DNA of 63,652 nt, counting the filler, from a bacterium (GTDB taxonomy: Bacteria; UBP15; UBA6099; JAJRTR01), in assembly GCA_024278215.1 (NCBI GenBank). It is 5 parts of 5 records of this genome, joined end to end, with 100 filler letters (N's around TTAATTAATTAA, not from the genome) between each part and the next. Parts side by side here need not be neighbours in the genome. Positions count along the whole stretch, not along the records: positions 1 to 11,166 come from JAJRTR010000076.1; 4 more parts are not named here. One strand, given 5' to 3'. The notes beneath the pieces were generated by a model. It was not told the origin of the DNA. It ran no database searches and saw nothing but the letters and a program-made list of their open reading frames with translations. Made by a program: the position numbers and the translations under genes. Below, one piece after another: positions 1-13,147 of the stretch. The stretch's first letter is position 1. Every line of letters starts with the position of its first letter.

Positions 1-192
1 AATGTCATAATTTGTTGATCCCCAGTTGGTATAATAGAAGTATAATGTTGGTTTTTGTAAATGATGTATTTGAATTGGATGCGGAAAGTCGACTGTAGCA
101 CCTGGAACATTAAGCAGGTCACTTGTAGTTTGAAAGGTTTTGAATACTTCAATGTTACTTAATCCGTCAGATAAGATTTCCTGATCTGCCAT
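1..192 (-). CDS. Partial ORF (MADQEILSDGLSNIEVF...), putative virion protein, runs off the window
   Basis: ATG at 192-190 overlaps the upstream stop (TAATG); frame is open to position 1. Confidence 0.6.
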   Translation of the reverse strand, partial: MADQEILSDGLSNIEVFKTFQTTSDLLNVPGATVDFPHPIQIHHLQKPTLYFYYTNWGSTNYDI

Positions 193-653
193 TAGCCTAT
201 AAACCTCCAGGTTATTTTCAATTCTCCGGAAATATTATTTAAAGCAGTTAAATCTCTATTGAGTAGCTGAATCCGGACAACATTCGATGTCGCATGATGA
301 CTGAATTTATGAATTCCCTGGTGCTCGAGGTAGAGTCTTCGAGTTAAAATGCTGGGAGTTGTCGTTAGCTCTTTTTCAAAAACTTTAATTTCCAGTTTCG
401 ACGGATTCGCCGCGGGATGTTCCCATCGGATAAGAAAGTCGAAAATCTTGCTGTGTACGGCGTGCAGGTTGACGTTGCCGGCCGGCGCGACGCTCGGCAT
501 GTCCTTCGGAGTCGGCATATCGCGTGCGACTTCCGTGAAACAATCTTTTATGAGAATATAATTCCCAGGCGTGATGACAAAAGTATCGTCATAGATCGTG
601 TATATGCGCTCTGTGGCTTTCGTGTACTGATTCGGAAGGTTATAGAATGGCAT
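192..653 (-). CDS. Hypothetical beta-rich protein, putative minor virion/vertex protein
   Basis: 153 aa; TAATG coupling at both ends; alternating hydrophobic strands (FDFLIRWEH, VRIQLLN, GELKITWRF). Confidence 0.55.
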   Translation of the reverse strand: MPFYNLPNQYTKATERIYTIYDDTFVITPGNYILIKDCFTEVARDMPTPKDMPSVAPAGNVNLHAVHSKIFDFLIRWEHPAANPSKLEIKVFEKELTTTPSILTRRLYLEHQGIHKFSHHATSNVVRIQLLNRDLTALNNISGELKITWRFIG

Positions 654-1246
654 TATTTCTGCATCCTTTCGTCCATCGGGAACATATCGAAAACGAGCCA
701 GCCGGAGGCCGATGCGACGATCTTACCGGAGTCCCAGCCGTCCGCCAGGCGGCGGATATACATTCCGAATTTCTGGTTTTCGTTAATGACAAGCCGGATT
801 TTCAGTTTGCATCCACAAGGCGGATTCTGCGGCACCTCGATAGCGGTTTGATCTCCAAATTGACGCCCGTCGACCATGAAGACCGCAACACAAATGCCTG
901 GCATGAACATATTCGACCAGACAATCTTCGCGTCGTCGATTATAAGCTTGCGCCCCTTCGGGACTGTATATTCGAGTACAGTTACATAGCCGCCTGTGTT
1001 CGTGTCGAATTCATAGAGATTGCAGGTGGAAGTATTCGCCGTAAAAGTCAAAGGTAGCGCAGACTCCGGCTGAAAAGCGACGTCCGGAAGTCGCTTAACG
1101 GTGACTCCGCCCTGGATCTGCCGCGCTATGGGAGTCCCGAGCGTGTCGCGTTCCAGAACATTTTGTTCGGCAGGCATCGCAAGGCCGCGCCGGCCGCCGC
1201 CGATCTGGCTCGGCACATATCCCTTTTGTCCAGGGTAACCCCTCAT
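653..1246 (-). CDS. Putative jelly-roll minor capsid/penton-like protein
   Basis: Gly/Arg-rich N-terminal arm followed by a beta-sandwich-like pattern (VLEYTVPKGRKLII...LVINENQKFGMYI...SASGWL). Confidence 0.5.
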   Translation of the reverse strand: MRGYPGQKGYVPSQIGGGRRGLAMPAEQNVLERDTLGTPIARQIQGGVTVKRLPDVAFQPESALPLTFTANTSTCNLYEFDTNTGGYVTVLEYTVPKGRKLIIDDAKIVWSNMFMPGICVAVFMVDGRQFGDQTAIEVPQNPPCGCKLKIRLVINENQKFGMYIRRLADGWDSGKIVASASGWLVFDMFPMDERMQK

Positions 1247-1248
1247 TT

Positions 1249-2061
1249 TCAGACTCCTATCAGGTTCGCGCCGATAAGCGCAAGTTCGCCGGCGTTAAAT
1301 GCGACTGCCGGGTCGTTATATGCGGTGATCGTGATATTGCCATTCGCCCGGAACGGCCGTGTTATCGGCAGCACTCCGGGAAGCTTCCCCGTGCCGCATA
1401 TCGTGCGAGTATCGACCGGCGTATTAAAAAGCGTTTTGCCGGAACTGCTGTCCTCGATCTGTATCTTCCACGGCCACACACGATCATGATTCATATTCAG
1501 GTAGTAGAGCTCGAACGGCTTATCGTTTAGTATCTCGATGGTGTCGGTGATGATCTGCCCGGGAAGAGAAAACGCAATGTCGACATTGTAGGCCGTAAAC
1601 TCCGCCCTCACGTCGTTACGCGCCAGGCTGTTACGTGTATACTCGCCGAGACTCGCCGGTGGCTGCGCCGCCGCGCCGCTCCGGAGCGTCGCGCCCACCA
1701 GATAGATACTTCCGGCGTTCGCCGCAATGAGTCCGTTTCGCGCGTCGATGCGTATAGTCCTGTTACCCGCGAATATGCGGGAGACGGGAAGTATCATAGG
1801 ATACTGGCCGTCGCCCAGCAAATTCACGGATGAACAGAAGTCGCGGAAGACATATTCGTTCGAGGAAGTATCCATAATGTTGAAAACGAATTCGTTCGGG
1901 TGCGAGGATACCAGGTAGTACAACTCGAAGTCTCCACCGCTGAGCAGCACTTTCGAGGCGCTGAGCGATTCGCTTGCCGCCGTAAAATCAAGCGGAAATT
2001 CGTACACATAATAATCTGCCGGGACTGTAACCCTCGGCTGAAGTCTATTCGTAGGTAACAT
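1249..2061 (-). CDS. Putative capsid protein with two tandem homologous beta-rich (jelly-roll-like) domains
   Basis: Internal duplication: FELYYL twice; LGDGQYPMILPVSRIF / CGTGKLPGVLPITRPF; NAGSIYLVGATL / NAGELALIGANL; GAGGAG RBS. Confidence 0.6.
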   Translation of the reverse strand: MLPTNRLQPRVTVPADYYVYEFPLDFTAASESLSASKVLLSGGDFELYYLVSSHPNEFVFNIMDTSSNEYVFRDFCSSVNLLGDGQYPMILPVSRIFAGNRTIRIDARNGLIAANAGSIYLVGATLRSGAAAQPPASLGEYTRNSLARNDVRAEFTAYNVDIAFSLPGQIITDTIEILNDKPFELYYLNMNHDRVWPWKIQIEDSSSGKTLFNTPVDTRTICGTGKLPGVLPITRPFRANGNITITAYNDPAVAFNAGELALIGANLIGV

Positions 2062-2106
2062 AATGAATACTCCTCTTTATTTGTCGTTATTGCTCGTTAT
2101 TACTCG

Positions 2107-2721
2107 TTACTGGACAGGCCGTTGCAGGAATCCGCCGAGCACGCACATAACCTGCTGCGTGGCTGCCAGATTCACGGGTGCGTTTGTGAACCTGATCGAC
2201 ACGTTGAATGCTTGATTCGGCTGAAGTACGATCGGTTTTGTGAGCTTGAATATACCCGAGGGATTCCGGCTACCATTCTGACCATAGATTTTCTCGAACG
2301 CGGCCGCGCTCGCATCCGCCGCGGCAAAGAACTGTGCGCCGAAACCGCTCGAAAGCAGCTTCACGGGTATTTCCAGATAGGTCTTGTCGCCAATGGTCAG
2401 CACAAGCCAGGTCTCATAGCGGAGCGCCGCGAGTATCTCGTCGGGGTCGTCTGCGAATTTCCCGAATTCGTCGTTGATGCCGACCTGTATTGAATGAATG
2501 CTGAAGCTGTTGCCGGCCGGGAGATTCCCGCCCTGGTCCATGTTCGTATGGCCCTTAGTTTTCTTCGTGCCGCTTATCGGGAGCGGCTGTCCGAATTTCT
2601 GCGTGAAAAAATCCATCTCGACCGTCGTCGCGTCCATCTCGGACGTATCGTATAGCGGCTGCTGGATTATCTGTCCGACGCCTGTCAGACCTGTAGCCTG
2701 GGCGAAGTTTTTAGTTTCCAT
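2107..2721 (-). CDS. Putative major capsid protein, single jelly-roll type
   Basis: 204 aa; QPLYDT..FF..TNM..GGNLPAGNSFSIHSI..PIVLQPNQAFNVSI..LGGFLQRPVQ beta pattern; AAGGAG RBS; position in the operon. Confidence 0.6.
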   Translation of the reverse strand: METKNFAQATGLTGVGQIIQQPLYDTSEMDATTVEMDFFTQKFGQPLPISGTKKTKGHTNMDQGGNLPAGNSFSIHSIQVGINDEFGKFADDPDEILAALRYETWLVLTIGDKTYLEIPVKLLSSGFGAQFFAAADASAAAFEKIYGQNGSRNPSGIFKLTKPIVLQPNQAFNVSIRFTNAPVNLAATQQVMCVLGGFLQRPVQ

Positions 2722-2763
2722 TTTTCAATCTCTCCTTTTTCGTTTTTTTCTTGATTCTTATGT

Positions 2764-3375
2764 TTATAGATAGCTGTTGTTTGCGAGATAGGATGCAGCG
2801 GGAAGTGATACATACTCGCCGAGTCCCGCGCCGGCGCCGCTCATCTCTGGCAGCATCCGGATATACTCGCCGACTTCGCCGTCGAGATACAGATCGTCCG
2901 CCAGGAACGTATCCGCATACTTCTTGCCAGTCGCCGTGTCAAATAGAGTTATGCCGCCCGAAAGCAAGCCACCGACCACAAGACCGTCGCACAACTGCTG
3001 ATTCTTCTTCTTGCGCCCCAGGAAATTTTCTCCCAGGATGCCGGCCGCTATGCCGGCAATCATCTGCACGCCGCCACGCACATAGCCCGACTGCGATTTC
3101 AGAAACGTATTCACCAGGGCGCGCGCTCCCATGAAGCCGGCCATAACGGCGAGGACCTCCGGCATCAGATATGCCAGGCGTTTCGTCATCGAGGACGGTC
3201 TCGGGTTTCTCCGGACCTTCCGCTTCGTCGCCTTCTTTTTGTATATCTTTTTTGCCGGGTTCCGCTTCGTCTTTTTCTTGGCTGTTTTCTTCTTTTTAGC
3301 CATGCTTGACCCCTTTCTTTTGGTTTTCTTCCTCCCTGCGGTTTTTCTCGGATTCATGATTAGTACACTGTGCAT
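2764..3375 (-). CDS. Lys-rich N-terminus (MNP/KRNP/RRNP) plus hydrophobic helices; putative DNA-binding internal membrane protein
   Basis: Highly basic first ~65 aa, about three Gly/Ala-rich hydrophobic segments, acidic GEY-containing tail. Confidence 0.6.
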   Translation of the reverse strand: MHSVLIMNPRKTAGRKKTKRKGSSMAKKKKTAKKKTKRNPAKKIYKKKATKRKVRRNPRPSSMTKRLAYLMPEVLAVMAGFMGARALVNTFLKSQSGYVRGGVQMIAGIAAGILGENFLGRKKKNQQLCDGLVVGGLLSGGITLFDTATGKKYADTFLADDLYLDGEVGEYIRMLPEMSGAGAGLGEYVSLPAASYLANNSYL

Positions 3376-3377
3376 CT

Positions 3378-3812
3378 TTATCCCTCGATTCCTCGCTCGG
3401 TGATCGTATAATCGCCGCCGATGATGTATAGTCTATTTCCTCGACTGTCGCTGCACAGCAGCGGTTTTGCCTTGTGAAAAACATGCCTGTAAGTCTCTTT
3501 CCCGCGGCGGCCCTTAGCCGCCTTATACTCGACAGCGTGCAGCTCGCCCAGGGACACCAGCACCTTCGGGACACCAGGCACTCGCGCCTTGATAACTTCC
3601 TTCGCGTCGCGCCCCCAGGAGAAGTCTTTGTAAAACGAGTCCGCCCGCCTGAGTTCACGCTCGATGGTCACCCGGGTCGATGTGTTTTTCCGGCTTGGGT
3701 TCTTCTTCTTCGCTTTTTTCGCCGTCGATTTGAGCGCCGGTTTCCGCTTCACGGCATTCTTTCTTGCGACAACTTTTCTTTTTTTCTTCTTTGCGACTTT
3801 TTTCTTCGCCAT
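3378..3812 (-). CDS. Lys-rich putative virion core protein
   Basis: MAKKKVAKKKKRK..KKNP arm, then a globular C-domain (YRHVF..KPLL..LYIIGGDYTITERGIEG); GAGGT RBS. Confidence 0.65.
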   Translation of the reverse strand: MAKKKVAKKKKRKVVARKNAVKRKPALKSTAKKAKKKNPSRKNTSTRVTIERELRRADSFYKDFSWGRDAKEVIKARVPGVPKVLVSLGELHAVEYKAAKGRRGKETYRHVFHKAKPLLCSDSRGNRLYIIGGDYTITERGIEG

Positions 3813-3819
3813 ATATAAT
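3791..3819 (+). promoter_or_regulatory. Sigma70 promoter driving the antisense cassette
   Basis: TTGCGA (3791-3796), 17-nt spacer, TATAAT (3814-3819). Confidence 0.65.
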
Positions 3820-3856
3820 TACCTCAAATTTCAATATTCAGAAAGGACATAAAACT

Positions 3857-4189
3857 ATGAATCAAACACCGCCTTTAGTTCTCGAAATGCAAAATATGAA
3901 GAAATCATTGAAAAGTATTCGTAACTGGATGATCGTTTTATGTTTTTTAGGTATGACATCCATAACACTCTTTTCTGCTGGAAATGCCTATTACATGAAA
4001 TATAAGTTTTCACAGCAACGAAAAGTGATAGAATTACAATCGGAGCAAATAAAGCAAATACAATATCAACAGCTTGCCTATATGAGAAGAAATGAAGAGT
4101 TGAGAAGGCAGATTGCAGAATCACAAAAACAACAAGATACGGCGAAAACAATCGCTGACATAGCAAAGATAATTTTAACATTATTTTGA
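3857..4189 (+). CDS. Small TM plus coiled-coil protein (moron gene 1)
   Basis: AAGGA RBS; TM segment (WMIVLCFLGMTSITLF); Gln-rich helix; AT-rich. Confidence 0.6.
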   Translation: MNQTPPLVLEMQNMKKSLKSIRNWMIVLCFLGMTSITLFSAGNAYYMKYKFSQQRKVIELQSEQIKQIQYQQLAYMRRNEELRRQIAESQKQQDTAKTIADIAKIILTLF

Positions 4190-4200
4190 GGAGCGATACC

Positions 4201-4374
4201 ATGAAAAAAGGACTCTTGACTCCTGAAGAACTGCACCAGAAGATCAGAGACACAAACAGGGTTGTGAATATAATGTTTTGGATTAATTTCATAATGTTTT
4301 TAAGTCTTTCTGTTTCCATATTTATTCTTTATAATTCAATAATTGATACGATCATGAGACTTTACGCTCAATAA
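4201..4374 (+). CDS. Small single-TM protein (moron gene 2)
   Basis: GAGGAG RBS; hydrophobic IMFWINFIMFLSLSVSIFILY. Confidence 0.6.
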   Translation: MKKGLLTPEELHQKIRDTNRVVNIMFWINFIMFLSLSVSIFILYNSIIDTIMRLYAQ

Positions 4375-4948
4375 GAACCATAGCGCTTAAAGCTGTAACT
4401 CCTCCAACAATCCAAGGTAGATTTTTTGTTATAAATACTTTGGAATTTGTTACAGATAGTAATTCTTCCGTTTTTCTTTTTGCCAGATATGCCTTTGCAA
4501 GATATGTCGTTGGAATTGCGATTATGGCCGCTATGGCAAGTCCTATAACTATCGGAGCAACCCCCAAATTAAGATCGTCAATTGTTTCGTCAGGCACGCC
4601 CGCCACCTTGAAATATGGCCATAGCAGTATTCGCAATCGGTTGTAAGCCTTTTCCGACTCGTGGAGCCTGGCGGCGAACTGCGCCTTCTCCGGGTCATCG
4701 TCCCGCATATAGGTAAGGTTGCGGCGAATCTGAAGGATGTCTCGCTTCATGCTATCGAGCATGTTCAGCATGTTATATGTTCGCACCTGAACCATCTCCC
4801 GGCCATGTCCCTGCTCCACCTGGTGGATGATCTCCACGAGATTATCTTTAACATCCTCGACCGTGCCGGTCGCTCGATGCCACCAGTCTTTTATCGTGTC
4901 CCAGGTTGAGGGTATTGTGTTTGACGCAACGAGAGTCATTTCTTCCAC
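4352..4948 (-). CDS. Putative virion membrane protein
   Basis: Helical N-domain and two hydrophobic segments (LGVAPIVIGLAIAAIIA; LPWIVGGVTALSAMVL). Confidence 0.6.
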   Translation of the reverse strand: MEEMTLVASNTIPSTWDTIKDWWHRATGTVEDVKDNLVEIIHQVEQGHGREMVQVRTYNMLNMLDSMKRDILQIRRNLTYMRDDDPEKAQFAARLHESEKAYNRLRILLWPYFKVAGVPDETIDDLNLGVAPIVIGLAIAAIIAIPTTYLAKAYLAKRKTEELLSVTNSKVFITKNLPWIVGGVTALSAMVLIERKVS

Positions 4949-5445
4949 CTGTCCACAAGAGTGAATGCGAGCACAGAGCCGGCCGCCGCCGCGCCATAAG
5001 CGATATACTTTTTCGGCACCCGCACATTCAGCAGCGGGATTGTCACGTTATCCTCATCCCCTGGCAAAGTAAAAGTTCCCGTCGCGCCGCCTGAAGGATG
5101 CACCGGCGCCGGCGCCGACGGTTTCGGATTGTACACCGGCACACTCGCTCCAGCTTCTTTTTTGCGGAGCCGATCCTGGTACCCGAGCAGCTTGCCGCTC
5201 AGCCCGTTTTTCTGCGCCTGCGTCAGCGCATACCAGTATCTCGACTTGATCGCGTTGTAATACTGCTCAAGATAGTAGTTGTCTGTCCGAGTCGGATTGT
5301 TTACCGATCTATAAAAAACAATATTGAATTTATCAATAAGCCTCTGTATCGCATCCGCCTGCGCTTCAGCCGTCGGCGGCCCGTAATAATTCGTCGCCGA
5401 CCTGCCCACTGTCCGATCTTGTATATACGAAGCTCCGAAGTTCAT
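4936..5445 (-). CDS. C-terminally anchored putative virion membrane protein
   Basis: Pro/Thr/Gly linker, C-terminal TM, basic RWKK end; AAGGTG RBS. Confidence 0.6.
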   Translation of the reverse strand: MNFGASYIQDRTVGRSATNYYGPPTAEAQADAIQRLIDKFNIVFYRSVNNPTRTDNYYLEQYYNAIKSRYWYALTQAQKNGLSGKLLGYQDRLRKKEAGASVPVYNPKPSAPAPVHPSGGATGTFTLPGDEDNVTIPLLNVRVPKKYIAYGAAAAGSVLAFTLVDRWKK

Positions 5446-5460
5446 TATTTCACCTTCCCA

Positions 5461-6213
5461 CTATATTTTTTTGTTGACAACCAGATACAACAGATATACC
5501 CCGACCGCCACAGCCATGTATGGGTAGAACTGTCTAAACACCTTAGGCTGAGTCGCATCATATTCGATGACTGTAGGCTCCGATCGCTGGAGCGGCGGCT
5601 GTGAAGGCCCGACTGGGATAGGATGCTCCGAATGTACAGTTTTAGAAACGTAAGGATCAGTAGGAGAAGGAGGACCTTCAGGATATTGAGAATTAGCAAC
5701 TCTGATGCGCCAGACCTGCCAGGCTGCCTGTATTCTGGATATTTCGGCGGCCGAAAGATGTTTCTTGTTTCTCATCAGAAACGCATGTACCGTTGCTATC
5801 GACTTTAAGGTATTGTCTGATATTGCTGCCTTTTGAACATTCGACAGGAAAGAAACATATATCGGAAGAACTGTATATTTTCTCACAGCATCATTTTTCA
5901 TAGTGTCATCCTCTGTTGAAGTCTTTATTCCTGAAGCGGCCGGTGGAAGCTGCGCCGCTGCATAACGCGCCTTATATGTCCTCCAGGCTTTAAAAAAGCG
6001 AGTCTGAGCTGGAGTTAGTGGCATCTTGTAGATCGTTTTATAGTGCCCACTATGTTTCTTCTTCTCGAAAAAGTCATACATCATCTGATAAGTTTTTGCG
6101 TCGAGCGGTCCGCTATCAGCTATTTTTATAAAGTTCTCTACCTCCGGACATATTTTCGCCTCTCTCGCCCAGTAAGCGGCATCAGCAACGATCTTTTTGT
6201 GTTTTTGCCCCAT
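5461..6213 (-). CDS. C-terminally anchored putative virion membrane protein
   Basis: Pro-rich linker, C-terminal TM (YPYMAVAVGVYLLYLVV), NKKI end. Confidence 0.6.
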   Translation of the reverse strand: MGQKHKKIVADAAYWAREAKICPEVENFIKIADSGPLDAKTYQMMYDFFEKKKHSGHYKTIYKMPLTPAQTRFFKAWRTYKARYAAAQLPPAASGIKTSTEDDTMKNDAVRKYTVLPIYVSFLSNVQKAAISDNTLKSIATVHAFLMRNKKHLSAAEISRIQAAWQVWRIRVANSQYPEGPPSPTDPYVSKTVHSEHPIPVGPSQPPLQRSEPTVIEYDATQPKVFRQFYPYMAVAVGVYLLYLVVNKKI

Positions 6214-6214
6214 A

Positions 6215-7132
6215 TCACTTACCGTTCATCCACAGGTATACCAGCAGCCCTCCGACGCCGACATAGATCACATAATCCTTCGGGATTTCGTTTCCCAGAA
6301 TATTTATAGTTTCTTTAGGCTTCGTCTCCGGCGCGGCCGCGCCCGCCGCGCGCCCGTCGCCAGGCACAGTAACATTCACCGTCGTAGTCGTTGAGGATGT
6401 CGCCGGCGTGCCCGTCGTGCCCGTTCCAGTCGTTTCGGTCGTTTCGGTCGTTCCCGTTGTTCCCGTTGTTCCCGTGCCCGTCGTTCCCGTGCCCTCATAT
6501 AAATTTATTACATGCTCGTATAGCTCCTGACTGATTTCTTTTCTCGCGAGCATATCATTGAGATACATCTTCCAGTCCGCACTACCGGCCTCATGAAGTT
6601 TTTTGATGAATGCCAGTTTTAATGTTTTATTAGTTATTGACGCCCATTTTTCGTCATTTGTCATCTGTGTAGTTCCTGTACTTGTCGTTGTAGTGCCGTC
6701 TCCACCATATGACTGTATTATCTGATCATATTTTTCGTCGCTTATTTGATTTGTGTTTTTTAAAATATCAAGTAATGACCGCCAATCTTTATTAGCGTGA
6801 TGATATTTCATTATTAATAATAATTTTTTAGATAAAGGTGGCTCCGGCTGATTCATATAAAAAACATCACTGTCATGACTCCATTTAGCGAAATTAGATT
6901 CAATACGTGAAATTTGTTCCGGAGTTGCAAGAGATTTTAAATTTTTATATTTTTTATACTGCTCGGGGAGATTTTGCCGCTTTTTCTGTTGATCGTAGTA
7001 ACTTTCAGTTTCCCAGTTTGTATAATTTGCAGCAGCATTAAGCTGTGCATCAATAATGCGGAGAAGTTTTTTGTCAGACTCTACGTCCCCGAAGTCGAGT
7101 ACAGCATCTCTGACATTGTCTAAAAAATTCAT
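6215..7132 (-). CDS. C-terminally anchored protein with a duplicated helical domain and Thr/Gly linker
   Basis: KLLLIMKYH..DW..IS..Y / KLAFIKKLH..DW..IS..Y repeat; TGTT low-complexity tract; C-terminal TM. Confidence 0.65.
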   Translation of the reverse strand: MNFLDNVRDAVLDFGDVESDKKLLRIIDAQLNAAANYTNWETESYYDQQKKRQNLPEQYKKYKNLKSLATPEQISRIESNFAKWSHDSDVFYMNQPEPPLSKKLLLIMKYHHANKDWRSLLDILKNTNQISDEKYDQIIQSYGGDGTTTTSTGTTQMTNDEKWASITNKTLKLAFIKKLHEAGSADWKMYLNDMLARKEISQELYEHVINLYEGTGTTGTGTTGTTGTTETTETTGTGTTGTPATSSTTTTVNVTVPGDGRAAGAAAPETKPKETINILGNEIPKDYVIYVGVGGLLVYLWMNGK

Positions 7133-7133
7133 G

Positions 7134-7736
7134 TCATTTCCTCATCAGAAGAATCAGCGCGAGACCGCCGGCCACCGCCCAGGGCAGATACTGTTCCAGG
7201 TCGCGCTTTGAAATATAATCGCCCTGCGGCTGTCGCGGCCACTCGATATTACCCGGGTCGATCTCCACCGGCTGCCCCTGCGTATAATCGCCCCACACCG
7301 TCCTATCGACAAGCTGCCGCATCGTCGCATCAATCATATCCTGCGTCGGAATAACACCCGTCGCCTGAAGCGACGTCCGCACCAGCCGTTGCAAGTCAGT
7401 CCATTTTTTGCCTTTTATCAATTTTGTCGCCGTCCCTCCGATTTTTGAGGCTATACCCGTAATTGATGATTGAACACCGTCACCCAGAGCACCCACAGCG
7501 CCGAGTCCGATCAGATACGGAAGCCCCTTCAGCGGTTTGTGTAGTATTTTGTGGAAGCCTTTTTTTAGTTTTCGTGCTATTTTTTTGAAAAAACCCGACA
7601 TATTCCCATCATCCAAATAATCGGAATAAGCCCAGGCTTTCATATCAACGACTTGACCGTCCGGAAGCTGAATATCATAAAGACCACTACTCGCCAGAAT
7701 CTCAAGATCATCTTCAGTAAGATTTTTTTTAATCAT
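7134..7736 (-). CDS. Membrane protein with a cationic amphipathic helix
   Basis: MSGFFKKIARKLKKGFHKILHK segment; C-terminal TM (LPWAVAGGLALILL); start placed at ATG 7736, overlapping the upstream stop. Confidence 0.6.
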   Translation of the reverse strand: MIKKNLTEDDLEILASSGLYDIQLPDGQVVDMKAWAYSDYLDDGNMSGFFKKIARKLKKGFHKILHKPLKGLPYLIGLGAVGALGDGVQSSITGIASKIGGTATKLIKGKKWTDLQRLVRTSLQATGVIPTQDMIDATMRQLVDRTVWGDYTQGQPVEIDPGNIEWPRQPQGDYISKRDLEQYLPWAVAGGLALILLMRK

Positions 7737-8223
7737 AAAGGAAAAACCGCCGTTCGATATATTTTTCAGGACCTTCGCCAAAATCGACATCTCTAATAGG
7801 GTCCATATCGTAAAAGTCGCGTCCTATAAGAGCCTGAGAATATATGTGATTCCAGACACCTCGCCGTTTTTGGGCTATAACAACGAACCTTGTTTTAATT
7901 CCGACCGATTCAAGTAATGCATTTAGCAATATCACTTGATCATCACAATCGCCGCTTCTAAACTGAATTGTCTGAATCGGAGTTTGCAGAGTCTCAACCC
8001 CTGCAATATCTTTACGGTATTTGATAGTATCACGGACCCAGTTGAATATAGTTTGAGTTTCAGCCATCGCGTCACGTTCGGGAGCCGTCATAATAATTGA
8101 AAGAGCTATCTGTCGTATTTTTGGATTAATCTTAAAATCTTTGACCATCTCCGCCATAGCATTAATAGTGAAAAGAAATTTCTCCATATAATTAGAAAAA
8201 TTATACTTAATCGCTTCGATCAT
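7729..8223 (-). CDS. Transglutaminase-like (Cys-His-Asp) protein, putative protease or cross-linker
   Basis: TLQTP..T....GDCDD...L..LL.SVG...RF......HIY......DMDP motif. Confidence 0.85.
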   Translation of the reverse strand: MIEAIKYNFSNYMEKFLFTINAMAEMVKDFKINPKIRQIALSIIMTAPERDAMAETQTIFNWVRDTIKYRKDIAGVETLQTPIQTIQFRSGDCDDQVILLNALLESVGIKTRFVVIAQKRRGVWNHIYSQALIGRDFYDMDPIRDVDFGEGPEKYIERRFFLYD

Positions 8224-8311
8224 TTATTTTTGTCTCCGTGGCGAGGACGGCGGACTTTTGGATTTCCGCCGCCCCCTGATTCAGGTAAAACACCACAGGG
8301 AAAAAGTCATT

Positions 8312-8342
8312 TAAAAAGCCCGCGGGACTCACGCCCCGCGGT
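8312..8342 (-). terminator. Intrinsic terminator-like hairpin upstream of the structural operon
   Basis: Minus strand: CCGCGGG stem, loop, CCCGCGG, followed by GCTTTTT. Confidence 0.5.
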
Positions 8343-8354
8343 TGAAACGGGTTG

Positions 8355-8966
8355 CTATCGGTTGCAATTTTCAACTCCATTATTCGCATTTATTTCTTTC
8401 AATATCTTTTCCTCCTCGATCAATTCGAGGAGCGTCTGACGACTCGAAAAGATAAGGTCTTTCGTTTTAATCGAAAGTTCGATGTCGAGATAGTGAATCT
8501 CTCCACATCGCGAACATACCACCCTTGCCGCGCCGCCTGTCAGCGAGACCGTCCCCGTAAGCTCGATGCGATTTCCGCAGCAGATACAATTCACAACGAG
8601 ATTCTCGATCTCAACAGTCAGCATTTTTCCGTTTTGCCCCTTTACTCTTTTTTCCTGTGACACATTCGAATATTTTTTCAGAAACAATTTACTGTCTTCC
8701 CGAACGATCAAAGGGAAAACGCATTCCTTATCAAACGGATTCTTGTTTCGACGCGGCCGCCCCGATCTATCTCTATGCGGCTGAGCATGATGACACGAGA
8801 AAGAAGAACAACTCCCGTAAATAGTCTCGTGACCATAAGGACAAACACGATCGTGATTGCAAGGTTGACGTACCAAGCAATCTTTAACGTGCCCGTCGTC
8901 CCCTAATTCAGATTTTTTAGGTTTTCTCTCCTTCGCAGCAAAAATAAATTCCTTAGCAATAGCCAT
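8355..8966 (-). CDS. Cys/His-rich zinc-ribbon protein, putative regulator
   Basis: CICC...CSRC pair plus an N-terminal Cys/His cluster; GGGGG RBS before ATG 8966. Confidence 0.55.
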   Translation of the reverse strand: MAIAKEFIFAAKERKPKKSELGDDGHVKDCLVRQPCNHDRVCPYGHETIYGSCSSFSCHHAQPHRDRSGRPRRNKNPFDKECVFPLIVREDSKLFLKKYSNVSQEKRVKGQNGKMLTVEIENLVVNCICCGNRIELTGTVSLTGGAARVVCSRCGEIHYLDIELSIKTKDLIFSSRQTLLELIEEEKILKEINANNGVENCNR

Positions 8967-9178
8967 AAGCAACCCCCGAATAAGATTGATAATTGAGAAG
9001 GAATTATAATTTAGTATTGTGGAAATTTGGGCAACGGACCAACAAACATATCCCTAATCAGCAACATTAATTAGTCGTGATACAGGAACATATATTATGC
9101 TACGTTGTATAGGTTTTGTTAAGTTTGACGTATTATCTTTACACTTCTTGTGATTCATGGAAGTTTTGTATTCAAGTC

Positions 9179-10990
9179 TTATCGTATATACTCGATACCC
9201 AGCGCACGTAGTCGTTTTCTCGCGAGGTCGGCGCCGTGACTGTAGAGATCGGTTTTGATGGCGTCTTTATACCATTTTATACCGCTGTCGCGGTCATGCA
9301 ATCTATTTTTATAGATGTCACCGATGTGGACGTAGCTCATAGTGTTGTCGGGTTTTATGGCGATGGATTTTTTGTAATAGATTATGGCATTTTCGTAGTC
9401 GCCGATTTCTTCGTAAACTTTCGCGACGAGGTCCTGCTGTTCGAAGTCGTCGGGCTGGAGGTCGGCGGTTATCTTAAAATGTTCGAGTGCATTGGCTTTC
9501 TTGCCGAGTTGATAGTAGATGTCGCCGATTTTATATTGCAGCGCTATGTCGTTTTTATTCGATGGGATCAGCTCGTTTGCTTCCTTATAGAGCCTGAGCG
9601 CGGTTTTTAGTTTACCCGTTGCATAGTTCTGGTTACCGATAAGAATAAGAGAAACTGAAAGTTTTTCTTTATATTTCGAGTTTCCCGGCTTGAGTTTCAG
9701 GTATTTTCGATACTCTTCGGCAGCTTTCCAGTAGTTTTTACCTTTAAAATACATTTCGCCGAGGTCGCGGTGGGTTTCAGGTATTCCAGGCTGTTCTTTG
9801 GTGATTTTCTGATATAGCGGCATTGCTTTTTTTACTCTGCCGGTCTGCCAGTAGATGCGTGCGAGTCCGACTTCGCATGTGGAGTGCGGAGCGGGCAGCG
9901 CTACACATGCTTCGAGTTTTTTCTCAGCCTGCCCTACCCTGTTCACGCGCAGCAACATTGCAGCCTGGAAGTTGTACCACGCTGCGGGCGAAACGCGCGG
10001 GAATAAAAAGAGGAATCCCGGCACAACGAGCAGCAAAGCGGCGATTGCGGCATATACAGGCGTGAGCCTGAACCCCTGCCGGTCCGCCACGGGCGCATAA
10101 GCCATGCTCGACCACAGGATAATTACTCCACTGAGGAAGGGGAACAGCATACCCGCGCCCAGAACTTTTATCAGGGAACGCAGCGCTGACATTTTCTGCT
10201 TACTAACGGGTGGCGCGGTGTTTTTGCTCGCTGCCGGCTCCGGGGGTGTGATCCTGAAAATGTTTATTTCCGGCATAAGCGCAGTTCGTTCCTGCACATA
10301 AGTCTCATATCCGGGGCCGAGTTCGATCATTGCGTTTACAAAGCGAAACCCCATAAGCAACGCCCCGATGCTTATCACAACGGAAAAGAAAGCAAGCAGT
10401 TGCAGCAGAAAAACTCCGATGCCGCGTTGCGAAAGCGCGAAAAAGAAGCTGAACGCAAACACTGCGCTCAGAACGATTCCGGTGGACAACTGCGGCAACA
10501 AGTCGAGTTTGTCAGCGAAAATAAAAATGAAAGGAATAGAGAAAACTTCTACACTTCTGCCGCTCTCGAAGCTGAACCAGGGCAGTACGAGCCCCGGAAC
10601 AAGCAGCACGACACCGGCAAACAGCCGGAAACCGGGAGTTCTAAGCAATGTGGTTACACGATTTCGACCGGCACGCTTCGGCTTTTTGAGTTTTTCATCA
10701 TTCGAGAATTTCGGAGTTTCCGCCTGCTGTGATTTATCCTGATCGGAAGCATCATGAGGCGCGCTCCCGGCTATTTTCGTTATATCCGTTGCTTTATCCG
10801 CAATCTTTTTTTGCGACGTTTTATTGACTGTCGGCTGACGCGCCTGTCGTTTCTGAGCAGGCTTACCGCCCTGCCCTGCTGTCGAATCTCCGGCGGACTT
10901 CTGCTTGTCCTTATTAAGAGCGCTTCCGCAGTTCAAACATATATCGACACCGTCAGGAACATCATTGCCGCAATTGTAACAGTAAGCCAT
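9179..10990 (-). CDS. Zinc-ribbon / multi-TM / TPR-repeat membrane protein
   Basis: CYNC..CLNC, about five TM segments, multiple TPRs (LGEMYFKGKNYWKAAEEYRKYLKLKP). Confidence 0.85.
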   Translation of the reverse strand: MAYCYNCGNDVPDGVDICLNCGSALNKDKQKSAGDSTAGQGGKPAQKRQARQPTVNKTSQKKIADKATDITKIAGSAPHDASDQDKSQQAETPKFSNDEKLKKPKRAGRNRVTTLLRTPGFRLFAGVVLLVPGLVLPWFSFESGRSVEVFSIPFIFIFADKLDLLPQLSTGIVLSAVFAFSFFFALSQRGIGVFLLQLLAFFSVVISIGALLMGFRFVNAMIELGPGYETYVQERTALMPEINIFRITPPEPAASKNTAPPVSKQKMSALRSLIKVLGAGMLFPFLSGVIILWSSMAYAPVADRQGFRLTPVYAAIAALLLVVPGFLFLFPRVSPAAWYNFQAAMLLRVNRVGQAEKKLEACVALPAPHSTCEVGLARIYWQTGRVKKAMPLYQKITKEQPGIPETHRDLGEMYFKGKNYWKAAEEYRKYLKLKPGNSKYKEKLSVSLILIGNQNYATGKLKTALRLYKEANELIPSNKNDIALQYKIGDIYYQLGKKANALEHFKITADLQPDDFEQQDLVAKVYEEIGDYENAIIYYKKSIAIKPDNTMSYVHIGDIYKNRLHDRDSGIKWYKDAIKTDLYSHGADLARKRLRALGIEYIR

Positions 10991-11026
10991 CCGTCTCACC
11001 GTTTTTCCAGATTGGTTTCATAAGAA

Positions 11027-11166
11027 GAGCCAATTGCAAAATTCTGATTCTGCTGCGGTCGGCTGCTATTGTCCATAGCTGCGTTGTCGGCATAAAATCG
11101 TCCTCGACGTACTCTACAAGTACGCCTGCGAGGATTTTGCACCTCCGCCTTGCTCTGAACAATTTC
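11027..11166. mobile_element. MITE family A copy, truncated by the contig end
   Basis: Starts GAGCCAATTGCAAAATT; near-identical reverse complement of 13147-13324. Confidence 0.85.
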
Positions 11167-11266: not shown

Positions 11267-12240
11267 AAAACCGGTGACGTAATGACGGGCGACCTCGAAG
11301 TGGATTCCGACATAATTGCATCGGGCAATATCACAGCGGCGACGGGAACGATTACAGCGGCGAGTTTCTCCGGCGACGGCAGCGCACTCACGGGTATCAG
11401 TTCGACAGACAATACGAAAGTGCTGAAAACCGGTGACGTAATGACGGGCGATCTGAATGTCGGCGCGAATGTGCTTGTAGCAGGTGACATAACGGCGGCG
11501 ACGGGAACGATGACAGCGGCGAGTTTCTCCGGCGACGGTTCAGCTTTAACAGGGATAGTTGTATCAGGTTCTGTTGCGAAAACCGGCGACGCGATGACAG
11601 GCGATCTGAATGTCGGCGCGAATGTGCTTGTAGCAGGTGACATAACGGCGGCGACGGGAACGATTTCGGCGGCGAGTTTCTCCGGCGACGGCAGCGCGCT
11701 CACGGGGATCAGTTCGACAGACAATACGAAAGTACTGAAAACCGGTGACGTAATGACGGGCGACCTCGAAGTGAATTCCGACATAATTGCATCGGGCAAT
11801 ATCACGGCGGCGACGGGAACGATCTCGGCGAATGCTTTCTCCGGCGACGGCAGCGCACTCACGGGCATCAGTTCGACAGACAATACGAAAGTACTGAAAA
11901 CCGGCGATGTAATGACGGGCGACCTCGAAGTGAATTCCGACATAATTGCATCAGGCAATATTACAGCGGCGACAGGAACGATTACGGCGAATGCTTTCTC
12001 CGGCGACGGCAGCGCACTCACGGGCATCAGTTCGACAGACAATACGAAAGTGCTGAAAACCGGAGACGTAATGACGGGCGACCTCGAAGTGAATTCCGAC
12101 ATAATTGCATCGGGCAATATCACGGCGGCGACAGGAACGATTACGGCGTCGAGTTTCTCCGGCGACGGCAGCGCGTTAACAGGGATAACCGCAACAGACA
12201 ACACAAAGGTGGCGATAGCAGGCGACACAATGACAGGGTC
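11267..12240 (+). repeat. About six intragenic tandem repeats of 153-159 bp
   Basis: AAAACCGG(T/C/A)GA recurs at about 11267, 11426, 11579, 11738, 11897 and 12056. Confidence 0.9.
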
Positions 12241-13147
12241 GCTGACGATAGGCTCACAGGGGCCGCAGACAGGTTATGACGTGACCTTTTACGGAACATT
12301 GGACAGCGGCAAAAGCATGATGTTCTGGGATGCCTCCAGAGACGCGTTCAGAGCAGGCTTTGACAGCACCACTGTATGGGACGACGCGGATGTAGGCAAC
12401 TATTCATTCGCCACGGGGCACACAACAAAAGCGAACGGGGCGGAATCCTTTGCCACAGGCTACCTTACGACTGCAAGCGGCATTGCGTCCGCCGCTTTCG
12501 GGAGAGAAACGAATGTCGCATCGGCCTTCACGTTCGCTGCGGGAAGAAGTGTGACAATTCAGGCTTCCAGCGATCATTCCGCAGGTTTCGGTTATAATAA
12601 TGATATTAGTGGATTGTCCTCATTTGTTGCAGGAGAGTACAGCAACATAAATGGTGATTATTCAATAGCGCTCGGCAGATATATAACTGCAAACAACACC
12701 GGCACTTTCGTCATAGGAAGAGGAATCGACGCTTTTAACAAGCTGGCAAACCCGGTAACAAATTCATTGATGATAGGATTCAACAGCGATGAAGCCACCC
12801 TGTATGTAGGTCCGGCAAGCGGCGCGGTCGGCTCGTACGGGAATGTGGGGATCGGCACGAGCAGCCCGTCTTCCAGGCTCGAAGTCAATGGTAGTTTCGA
12901 ACTGTCGGACCCGGAAGTCGCAGGCCAGAGCACTATAGCAAGCGGCAGCGCATGCAAGACCGTTTCGAGCTCGATAATAACAGCTTCCAGCGCTGTTATC
13001 GTCACCCCGTACACGACCTCGACGACGAGCGCGGAAGCGACATTGAAAGTGAAAACGATAACGGCGAGCGCAAGCTTTGAGGTCTGCACAGTGGACGAAA
13101 GTGTTGTATCCACAAACATAGGTTTCTCTTATGTAGTTATAAATTAG
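11267..13147 (+). CDS. Repeat-rich adhesin/fibre-like surface protein, 5' truncated
   Basis: 53-aa KTGDVMTGDL...GDGSALTGI repeats; YadA-head-like SFATG/SAAFG repeats; GNVGIGTSSP motif. Confidence 0.75.
   Translation, partial: KTGDVMTGDLEVDSDIIASGNITAATGTITAASFSGDGSALTGISSTDNTKVLKTGDVMTGDLNVGANVLVAGDITAATGTMTAASFSGDGSALTGIVVSGSVAKTGDAMTGDLNVGANVLVAGDITAATGTISAASFSGDGSALTGISSTDNTKVLKTGDVMTGDLEVNSDIIASGNITAATGTISANAFSGDGSALTGISSTDNTKVLKTGDVMTGDLEVNSDIIASGNITAATGTITANAFSGDGSALTGISSTDNTKVLKTGDVMTGDLEVNSDIIASGNITAATGTITASSFSGDGSALTGITATDNTKVAIAGDTMTGSLTIGSQGPQTGYDVTFYGTLDSGKSMMFWDASRDAFRAGFDSTTVWDDADVGNYSFATGHTTKANGAESFATGYLTTASGIASAAFGRETNVASAFTFAAGRSVTIQASSDHSAGFGYNNDISGLSSFVAGEYSNINGDYSIALGRYITANNTGTFVIGRGIDAFNKLANPVTNSLMIGFNSDEATLYVGPASGAVGSYGNVGIGTSSPSSRLEVNGSFELSDPEVAGQSTIASGSACKTVSSSIITASSAVIVTPYTTSTTSAEATLKVKTITASASFEVCTVDESVVSTNIGFSYVVIN

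Follow-up and report, generated by a model that had tools for sequence, protein, structure and literature searches.

Only a few isolates represent the tailless, membrane-containing viruses whose capsid proteins are vertical jelly rolls. Members of the Helvetiavirae (SH1, HHIV-2, HCIV-1, and P23-77) are tailless and contain a membrane, and they have two vertical single jelly-roll (SJR) capsid proteins, with an FtsK/HerA-type ATPase encoded beside the capsid genes. The host of P23-77 is Thermus. The DNA of SPV1, a virus with an archaeal host, is packed with a basic protein. As far as the passages on these viruses in PMC8812541 go, SPV1 has an internal membrane, and both SPV1 and FLiP are without a packaging ATPase. 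The same source, where it treats double jelly-roll (DJR) capsid proteins, presents as debated whether they arose from fused viral SJR genes or from cellular enzymes (PMC8812541). Here, we describe a gene cluster encoding one SJR and one DJR protein in a 63,652-nucleotide stretch of DNA (the window, which is the whole stretch analyzed, filler included). The window consists of several contigs, with runs of N between them, of one metagenome-assembled genome (MAG) from a bacterium of the phylum UBP15 (GCA_024278215.1).

The cluster lies on the first contig (C46; JAJRTR010000076.1; 11.2 kb, window positions 1 to 11166) of the host MAG (G000), which comprises 4.55 Mb in 207 contigs, is 95% complete, and has 14 sigma-70 genes. 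The segment from position 1 to ~8300, possibly to ~9000, is probably the virion module of an undescribed SPV1/helvetiavirus-like tailless bacterial virus, present as an integrated provirus or a remnant of one. This reading is supported by the predicted folds, the gene context, the distribution of relatives, and a CRISPR spacer. An earlier note on this DNA had proposed the morphogenesis module of a tailless provirus, and these four lines of evidence uphold the module; the label “provirus” is unproven because the genes for integration, replication, and packaging are all out of view. No description of this gene combination was found in the literature searched (supplements were outside the search), and a transglutaminase-fold enzyme as a companion of such capsid modules was unreported in the literature searched.

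Structural models of the two jelly-roll proteins

The 204-aa protein is encoded by the only gene of its family in the host genome. A search with the single sequence returned 1 homolog, and a profile of four sequences returned 58, mostly of ~185 aa. The AlphaFold2 (AF2) model, built on 25 sequences (pLDDT 78.5, pTM 0.75), shows a single jelly roll. Only one structural match was strong, and it was also the best: the capsid chain of SPV1 (6oj0_A; Z 9.1, or 8.5 in the wide search; 143 residues aligned at a root mean square deviation [rmsd] of 3.5), the only PDB chain with a Z of at least 8 and 1.7 above the next. Capsid proteins of the Helvetiavirae followed at Z 6.7 to 7.4 (HHIV-2, 7.4; HCIV-1, 7.0; SH1, 7.0; P23-77 VP17, 6.7), in the company of PHM (7.0). 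Foldseek returned SPV1 as the sole match at an E value of ≤0.001 (4.7e-4), with SH1 next. Among the solved SJR capsids ranked against the model, only P23-77 is labelled a bacteriophage. At the sequence level, no similarity to SPV1 was present, the structural alignments had 8 to 13% identity, and none of the PDB sequences matched by the family profile (A5) was a capsid protein. In the ESM Atlas, the protein falls among mostly viral-labelled clusters (score 0.98), and the nearest clusters bearing a Pfam family are those of PM2 P2 and PRD1 P3 (0.77), which serves as a lead only. The model makes the 204-aa protein a candidate major capsid protein of the vertical SJR type.

The 270-aa protein is predicted to be a double jelly roll. 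Its AF2 model (17-sequence alignment; pLDDT 85.8, pTM 0.83) was ranked by VIA-align against 48,161 chains. It superposes over both domains, at Z 8.3 to 11.7, on the DJR capsid proteins of the Bamfordvirae (STIV B345, PRD1 P3, PM2 P2, FLiP, and phiCjT23) and on DUF2961 proteins. The major capsid protein of STIV scored 10.3 (219 residues aligned, rmsd 4.0), followed by PRD1 P3 (8.6), FLiP (8.4), phiCjT23 (8.3), and PM2 P2 (8.3), with PNGase F at 8.5; single-domain matches were interspersed (HHIV-2, 9.1; SPV1, 8.6). PM2 P2, with a chain of 269, is equal to the window protein in size. The set of matches is the DJR fold set, viral and cellular, as Krupovic et al. define it in their treatment of the fold (PMC8812541). 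The beta-rich products had been expected to be jelly rolls, and the two of them that were modelled have this fold, with capsid proteins of tailless internal-membrane viruses (SPV1, HHIV-2, HCIV-1, SH1, P23-77, STIV, PRD1, PM2, and FLiP) among their best matches. A profile comparison with hhalign found no relation between the 204-aa and 270-aa families. In contrast with the two vertical SJR proteins of the Helvetiavirae, then, the window has one gene of the 204-aa family and a fused two-domain protein of another sequence family. Relative to SPV1, it adds the DJR protein and a transglutaminase-fold enzyme.

A trimer was predicted for the 270-aa protein with an ipSAE of 0.87; the highest value among three controls was 0.00. 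Over three runs, at least 79% of the contacts agreed, and partner pLDDT was at least 86. The calibration set had 30 proteins solved as pairs of one chain, of which 20 attained this mark, and 23 solved as single chains, of which 1 did. In the predicted ring, the C-domain of each chain meets the N-domain of the next, a head-to-tail arrangement typical of the DJR fold; the pass may partly reflect likeness to known trimers, since trimers of this fold have already been solved. A 37-residue motif over the last strands also aligns with the second domain (PF21881) of the STIV vertex (penton base) protein A223, with weak scores: the family profile (A1) gave E values of 0.035 to 0.056, and the homolog P0008 gave 4e-4 (21.1 bits, below the cut-off of 27). 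Unlike in A223, the two domains of the model stand side by side as in capsomers, and the predicted assembly is a trimer, not a pentamer. With the trimer prediction on one side and the weak A223 link on the other, both roles are possible, and the 270-aa protein is a candidate for either a trimeric, pseudo-hexameric capsomer or a vertex protein.

The two halves of the 270-aa protein are clearly similar in sequence (alignment score of 148, versus 27 ± 4.6 for shuffles), in contrast with known viral DJR proteins, whose halves show no such similarity according to the sections of PMC8812541 on this fold. An exhaustive HMMER search found 108 relatives at an E value of ≤0.001. The family also differs from known DJR proteins in mixing forms: the 113 members examined (P0001 to P0117) comprise 61 single-domain proteins (97 to 209 aa) and 52 two-domain proteins (233 to 342 aa). 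In a FastTree phylogeny of 165 domains, which is limited by short domains, a midpoint root, and possible gene conversion and from which the 1054-aa match P0081 was excluded, N- and C-domains do not split into two global groups. Instead, N and C halves are sisters within at least three separate clades. One of these includes the window protein (16 N versus 17 C, 5 single-domain proteins, and 2 N; support 0.956); another joins 6 N with 6 C (support 0.99), and a third, of 16 N and 16 C (support 0.9), is sister to 40 single-domain proteins. Because the halves pair in this way in several clades, the tree suggests repeated tandem duplication and fusion into double jelly rolls.

Gene order in the window and in related loci

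Fourteen open reading frames (ORFs) lie on the minus strand between positions 8972 and 1, most of them with good ribosome-binding sites (Table 1). The earlier note had described at least 12 tightly coupled genes in the order zinc ribbon, transglutaminase-like enzyme, five membrane-anchored proteins, two Lys-rich proteins, and beta-rich proteins. The same-strand ORFs agree with this description, but the coupling is interrupted by an AT-rich gap of 540 bp and by a strong terminator-like hairpin (8341-8320, minus strand), which separates the transglutaminase gene from the zinc-ribbon ORF. For the zinc ribbon itself, the CxxC pairs are visible, but the Pfam match (Zn_ribbon_Nudix, E 0.009) is under the cut-off. 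This 205-aa ORF, for which no counterpart was seen in the related loci, may be transcribed separately and is an uncertain member of the element.

Table 1. Features of contig C46, in window coordinates
Feature	Position	Strand	Basis
Dispersed repeat copy, ~141 bp, closing contig C46	11026-11166		blastn
Host gene outside the element: 606-aa protein with zinc ribbon, membrane segments, and TPR repeats	9179-10999	-	TPR families (Pfam)
205-aa ORF, TTG start, CxxC...CxxC zinc-ribbon-like motif	8355-8972	-	Translation
164-aa transglutaminase-core (papain-like Cys-His-Asp) enzyme	7729-8223	-	PF01841
Protospacer, 33-nt exact match to host array spacer on contig C76	7706-7738	-	blastn
218-aa tail-anchored protein	7134-7790	-	Hydrophobicity
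305-aa tail-anchored protein	6215-7132	-	Hydrophobicity
250-aa tail-anchored protein	5461-6213	-	Hydrophobicity
169-aa tail-anchored protein	4936-5445	-	Hydrophobicity
198-aa tail-anchored protein	4352-4948	-	Hydrophobicity
AT-rich gap, 540 bp	3813-4351		Plus-strand ORFs 3764-4189 and 4186-4374 versus minus-strand ORF 3855-4319
144-aa protein, Lys/Arg-rich N-terminal half, conserved globular C-terminal part ending ...TERGIEG	3378-3812	-	Composition
203-aa protein, Lys/Arg-rich N terminus, then glycine-rich hydrophobic segments	2764-3375	-	Composition
204-aa single jelly-roll protein	2107-2721	-	AF2 model
270-aa double jelly-roll protein	1249-2061	-	AF2 model
197-aa ORF	653-1246	-	Strong ribosome-binding site
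153-aa ORF	192-653	-	Strong ribosome-binding site
N-terminal 64 aa of a further gene, truncated by the contig end	1-192	-	ORF call

The transglutaminase-core protein is the sole protein of the cluster to reach a curated family cut-off (PF01841, E 3.3e-11; 43.9 bits versus a cut-off of 23). Its Cys (DCDD), His (HIY), and Asp residues are invariant in 8 of 8 aligned homologs, in agreement with the Cys-His-Asp enzyme proposed previously, and 7 metagenome loci have homologs in the corresponding position (phmmer E 1e-13 to 2e-18). The enzyme is a candidate maturation or lytic protease. The five membrane-anchored proteins were also borne out. In the 218-, 305-, 250-, and 169-aa proteins, the best 15-residue hydrophobic stretch stands at or near the C terminus and is followed by K/R, and the 198-aa protein has two such stretches. 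Tail-anchored proteins with basic tails occur at the corresponding place in related loci. These five proteins, which matched no family in Pfam, PHROGs, NCBIfam, or PADLOC, are candidate virion membrane proteins.

Both Lys-rich proteins have the expected composition, with 26 (144-aa protein) and 28 (203-aa protein) K+R in the first 60 residues. A homolog of the 144-aa protein in locus L003 is 36% identical over 88 aa (E 1e-11), and the same C-terminal motif is present in L023 and L025; this protein is a candidate DNA-condensing core protein. The 203-aa protein has a hydrophobic stretch at residues 74 to 88. Proteins of the same build occupy its position in L003, L023, and L025, as judged by eye and position and carrying no score, and it is a candidate link between the DNA core and the membrane.

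The 197- and 153-aa proteins had no family match in Pfam, PHROGs, or NCBIfam and no profile similarity to the 270-aa family. The clusters nearest to the 197-aa protein in the ESM Atlas are viral hypothetical proteins (score 0.92; a lead only). Both products are candidate minor or vertex proteins. Overall, PHROGs gave no match for any of the 14 ORFs, and NCBIfam and PADLOC gave none for the cluster proteins. No FtsK/HerA-type packaging ATPase of the kind that accompanies helvetiavirus capsid genes was seen among the 14 ORFs, on a contig that is cut at base 1.

Coding in the AT-rich gap is ambiguous on both strands. On the plus strand, two small ORFs (141 and 62 aa) run antisense to a 154-aa minus-strand ORF (window 3764-4374); both encode a hydrophobic segment, and one of them also encodes a coiled-coil-like tail. 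They could be lysis or immunity genes, or noise.

JGI metagenome contigs were scanned for related loci, with relatives of the 204-aa protein (~185 aa) as queries, and 25 loci were found. A module of ~10 kb is common to seven of them (L019, L020, L021, L023, L024, L025, and L027). It starts with an ORF of 840 to 1030 aa, a coiled-coil protein of ~105 aa, and a transglutaminase-core protein with a C-terminal anchor; continues with tail-anchored proteins with basic tails and a basic protein ending ...RGI(V/I)G, the motif of the window's 144-aa protein; and closes with a basic protein with two hydrophobic segments followed by two tandem SJR paralogs. The tandem capsid-like paralogs of these loci recall the paired SJR proteins of the Helvetiavirae. 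In the short contig L039, a gene of the 204-aa family is paired with a single-domain member of the 270-aa family. No packaging ATPase was detected by Pfam in the modules of L023, L025, and L027, and the ~1000-aa ORFs have no Walker A motif.

From the models and gene order, a particle can be sketched. The 204-aa protein would build the capsid lattice as the capsid proteins of SPV1 and helvetiaviruses do, and head-to-tail trimers of the 270-aa protein would form pseudo-hexameric capsomers or parts of the vertices. The five tail-anchored proteins would sit in a lipid vesicle beneath this shell. The two Lys/Arg-rich proteins would cover the DNA and condense it, that with hydrophobic segments would tie the core to the membrane, and condensation by basic proteins may stand in for a packaging motor, as in SPV1. 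The Cys-His-Asp enzyme of transglutaminase fold may act as a maturation protease or in lysis or entry.

Host contig, CRISPR spacer, and relatives

Beyond the cluster, contig C46 carries a TPR gene and a dispersed repeat. The N-terminal 370 aa of the TPR protein have homologs in 11 of 12 other genomes of the phylum, as befits the host gene that it had been taken for. The ~141-bp repeat has 399 blastn matches across the genome, many of them exactly at contig ends, and appears to be a main cause of the fragmented assembly. Because it holds both a lineage-typical TPR gene and the genome's own dispersed repeat, C46 is a chromosomal contig of this genome. Where the cluster meets the TPR gene (8973-9178), the sequence is unique, and the repeat sits beyond the TPR gene; given the presence of this gene in 11 of 12 other genomes of the phylum, the cluster therefore adjoins host DNA via unique sequence. 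At its other end, the cluster is cut by the start of the contig at window base 1. Further genes had been anticipated to the left, but nothing lies further left in the assembly, and a comparison of shared k-mers found no overlap of this end with other contigs of the genome.

On the next contig of the window (C47), a 621-aa ORF (11282-13147) contains about nine copies of a unit of ~38 residues (...TGDVMTGDLEV...GNITAATGTI...FSGDGSALTGI...), and a long antisense ORF is also open through its repeats. It resembles a fibre or adhesin and is unrelated to the cluster.

When window positions 1 to 9200 were compared by blastn with the rest of the host genome, one long match was found, of 33 exact bases (E 2e-8), to a spacer of a CRISPR array. 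The array, with 23 repeats, reaches the end of contig C76 and continues on C112; 27 spacers were read, of which 1 matches the cluster, and the other 26 had no match in the sequences compared. The neighbors of the array are genes for Cas12b (1432 aa; 947 bits versus a cut-off of 150) and a Cas4/Cas1 fusion (590 versus 560), and the array and cas genes lie beside the housekeeping gene for the Der GTPase. This type V-B locus is outside the window (C76 47505-49097 and C112 24-413) and holds at least 27 spacers over the two contigs.

The four spacer bases nearest the preceding repeat mismatch the resident copy, and all four differences are transitions. Beyond them, on the same repeat-proximal side, a run of T flanks the target. 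For Cas12b, the protospacer-adjacent motif (PAM) is T-rich and lies on that side, and sensitivity to mismatches is greatest beside it. If the PAM side and array direction hold, the resident copy either is an escape variant or is related to the copy from which the spacer was acquired, and the position of the mismatches fits escape from self-targeting. Either way, because a Cas12b array carries a spacer against the cluster, the host lineage has dealt with this DNA as with an invader, and the DNA has existed in more than one variant.

Profile searches with the 204-aa and 270-aa families found neither in the 12 other genomes of the phylum (completeness, 67 to 97%). The sole other named carrier of the 270-aa family is an unrelated 1.3-Mb MAG labelled Alphaproteobacteria (G013; locus L003, on a 4.8-kb contig), in which, as in the window, genes for a basic protein and a basic membrane protein come before those for the single and then the double jelly roll. 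The 28 other genomes of that MAG's order were all negative for the family. Carriage thus amounts to 1 of 13 genomes in the host phylum and 1 of 29 in the order of the other carrier. The close family is sporadic and not a conserved operon; a conserved operon would have spoken against a provirus. For the 21 cluster members of the 270-aa family with contigs listed, the longest contig is 17.8 kb. The longer contigs with close homologs include those of P0006 (17.8 kb), P0117 (16.8 kb), P0016 (15.6 kb), P0112 together with P0111 (13.7 kb), P0014 (13.3 kb), and P0004 (11.6 kb). The family member P0006 had no match in genome_contigs, and no other contig of the host genome has homologs of the module genes of the related loci.

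The ~185-aa relatives of the 204-aa protein include carriers of another size: MDTD01135090.1 (243 kb; L021 and L032), Ga0315336_1000031 (859 kb; L025 and L030), L019 (236 kb), and L033 (440 kb). Two large records hold a second, more distant capsid-like copy fused into longer ORFs of 230 to 408 aa. The flanks encode DnaK, collagen-like proteins, homing endonucleases, a sigma factor, topoisomerase IA, thymidylate synthase, beta clamp, and GroES, and L032 has 19 tRNA genes within 20 kb. A conserved flank protein of ~625 aa that matched a PHROG (E 1e-240) was discarded as evidence: it is DnaK, uninformative on virus versus cell. No direct terminal repeats were found on the whole contigs L020, L023, L031, L034, L035, and L036. 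These large contigs may represent huge viruses or virus-like elements whose capsids consist of jelly-roll proteins, or small cells. On a 17-kb contig (L017), a fragment with a Cas12f1-like/TnpB TNB domain (3972-4358, E 2e-20) stands just after a capsid-like gene pair, and genes for thymidylate synthase, GMP reductase, beta clamp, GroES, and a nucleotidase follow further on.

Readings of the cluster and what they imply

Several observations weigh against an integrated virus. Searches of C46 with Pfam, PHROGs, and NCBIfam and for tRNAs revealed no integrase, att site, tRNA, replication gene, or packaging ATPase, on a contig that ends inside the cluster and so may hold only part of it. By Pfam, the modules of the seven related loci likewise have no replication, integration, or packaging gene. 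Composition is host-like: the tetranucleotide distance of the cluster is equalled or exceeded by 12.6% of 406 host windows, and the mean GC content at third codon positions (GC3) of the cluster is 0.55, versus 0.61 ± 0.06 for the host, with the capsid genes themselves host-like. Virus collections were silent. The earlier note had pointed to viral metagenomes as a place to look, and viral_contigs gave no match with members of the 270-aa family (the 270-aa protein, P0015, and P0116) or with the alignment of the 204-aa family; the phage collection had no tblastn match with the 270-aa protein, P0121, or the 204-aa protein, and PHROGs had nothing for 44 relatives of the 270-aa protein. The best structural matches of the 270-aa model are cellular (DUF2961, Z 11.7, 11.3, and 10.8; PHM, 10.9), and therefore fold alone does not make this protein viral. 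The single spacer match is supportive and not decisive, because self-derived spacers occur. Finally, the ~185-aa relatives stand at a fixed position, with conserved, syntenic flanks, in contigs of 236 to 859 kb, which does not sit easily with a small mobile virus in that branch.

Nor was a clean empty insertion site found when gene order around the TPR gene was compared in three relatives. In these, the TPR gene is directly followed by a gene for a protein of 820 to 1006 aa. The orthologue of that gene in the host genome, encoding a TPR lipoprotein of ~900 aa, is split over contigs C161 and C7 and preceded by genes for a DEAD-box helicase and a 604-aa protein. The latter two are present in 13 of 13 genomes of the phylum but lie elsewhere in the relatives, and the order in the sister genus is scrambled. 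Gene order has thus changed from family to family within the phylum and does not reveal an insertion site.

Some of these observations would suit a domesticated, cell-owned particle system, that is, a virus-derived set of genes for non-infectious capsid-like particles or coated vesicles, comparable to gene transfer agents or nanocompartments and without genes for replication or integration. The missing gene classes here and in the seven related modules, the host-like composition, and the fixed place of the relatives' module all agree with it, as do Borgs, described in the part of PMC12660748 that concerns them as huge, non-viral-looking elements whose single jelly-roll capsid-like genes are closest to those of HCIV-1. 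Domestication should, however, lead to retention within a lineage, whereas this cluster occurs in 1 of 13 and 1 of 29 genomes. The spacer and its divergence from the resident copy point instead to an invader with variants, and the contigs of the 270-aa family do not exceed 17.8 kb. We regard domestication as unlikely.

A non-viral origin, in which a cell-envelope or secretion operon uses its jelly rolls to bind or process carbohydrates and its transglutaminase to cross-link or cleave surface proteins, is quite improbable. It would account for the DUF2961 glycoside hydrolases and PHM at the top of the 270-aa ranking; jelly rolls are common in cellular carbohydrate-binding proteins, as the portions of PMC8812541 on cellular homologs state, and middling Z values (7 to 9) such as those of the 204-aa protein can come from a common fold alone. 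Yet the DUF2961/GH172 enzymes are of ~370 aa and belong to PF11175, whereas the 270-aa protein and 26 relatives matched no Pfam family at cut-off, neither PF11175 nor another enzyme family. Both jelly-roll proteins start without a long hydrophobic stretch, as judged from hydrophobicity. The highly basic N termini of two neighboring proteins fit nucleic-acid binding, not envelope work, and the 204-aa ranking is led by capsid proteins of membrane-containing viruses. The spacer match and sporadic distribution also argue against an envelope operon.

That the genes are viral but not integrated, C46 being chimeric or mis-binned with a free viral genome joined to host DNA at the repeat, is again very doubtful: the MAG is in 207 contigs, C46 is short and ends in a repeat, relatives' contigs are similar in size, and a spacer against a resident element is normally harmful, but the junction with the TPR gene is unique with the dispersed repeat on its far side, and the four mismatches at the spacer end offer a way to tolerate the spacer.

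The virion module of an SPV1/helvetiavirus-like virus remains the reading that we favor. A bacterial relative of this type would widen the host range of these viruses, with no sequence similarity to known members. The spacer links the element to a host phylum that is represented by just 13 species genomes in the collection searched. The 270-aa family is also relevant to the origin of DJR capsid proteins, as single- and two-domain forms coexist in it and the halves are still alike. Because these forms coexist and the halves, still similar, pair in at least three clades, the family shows that duplication and fusion into a double jelly roll, here one predicted to form trimers, can happen readily.

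A bolder and rather unlikely reading is that the cluster represents a new high-rank lineage of bacterial membrane-containing viruses that have no packaging motor and condense their DNA with basic proteins, in which DJR proteins arose several times by tandem duplication of SJR genes, so lately that the sequences still show it, and whose more distant relatives, sharing its order of transglutaminase, membrane-protein, basic-protein, and capsid genes, supply jelly-roll capsids for tRNA-array genomes of 0.24 to 0.86 Mb. If true, those large relatives would be giant bacterial viruses or virus-like elements without the HK97 fold, and the 270-aa family would show in a living case the step from single to double jelly roll, for which there is otherwise inference only.

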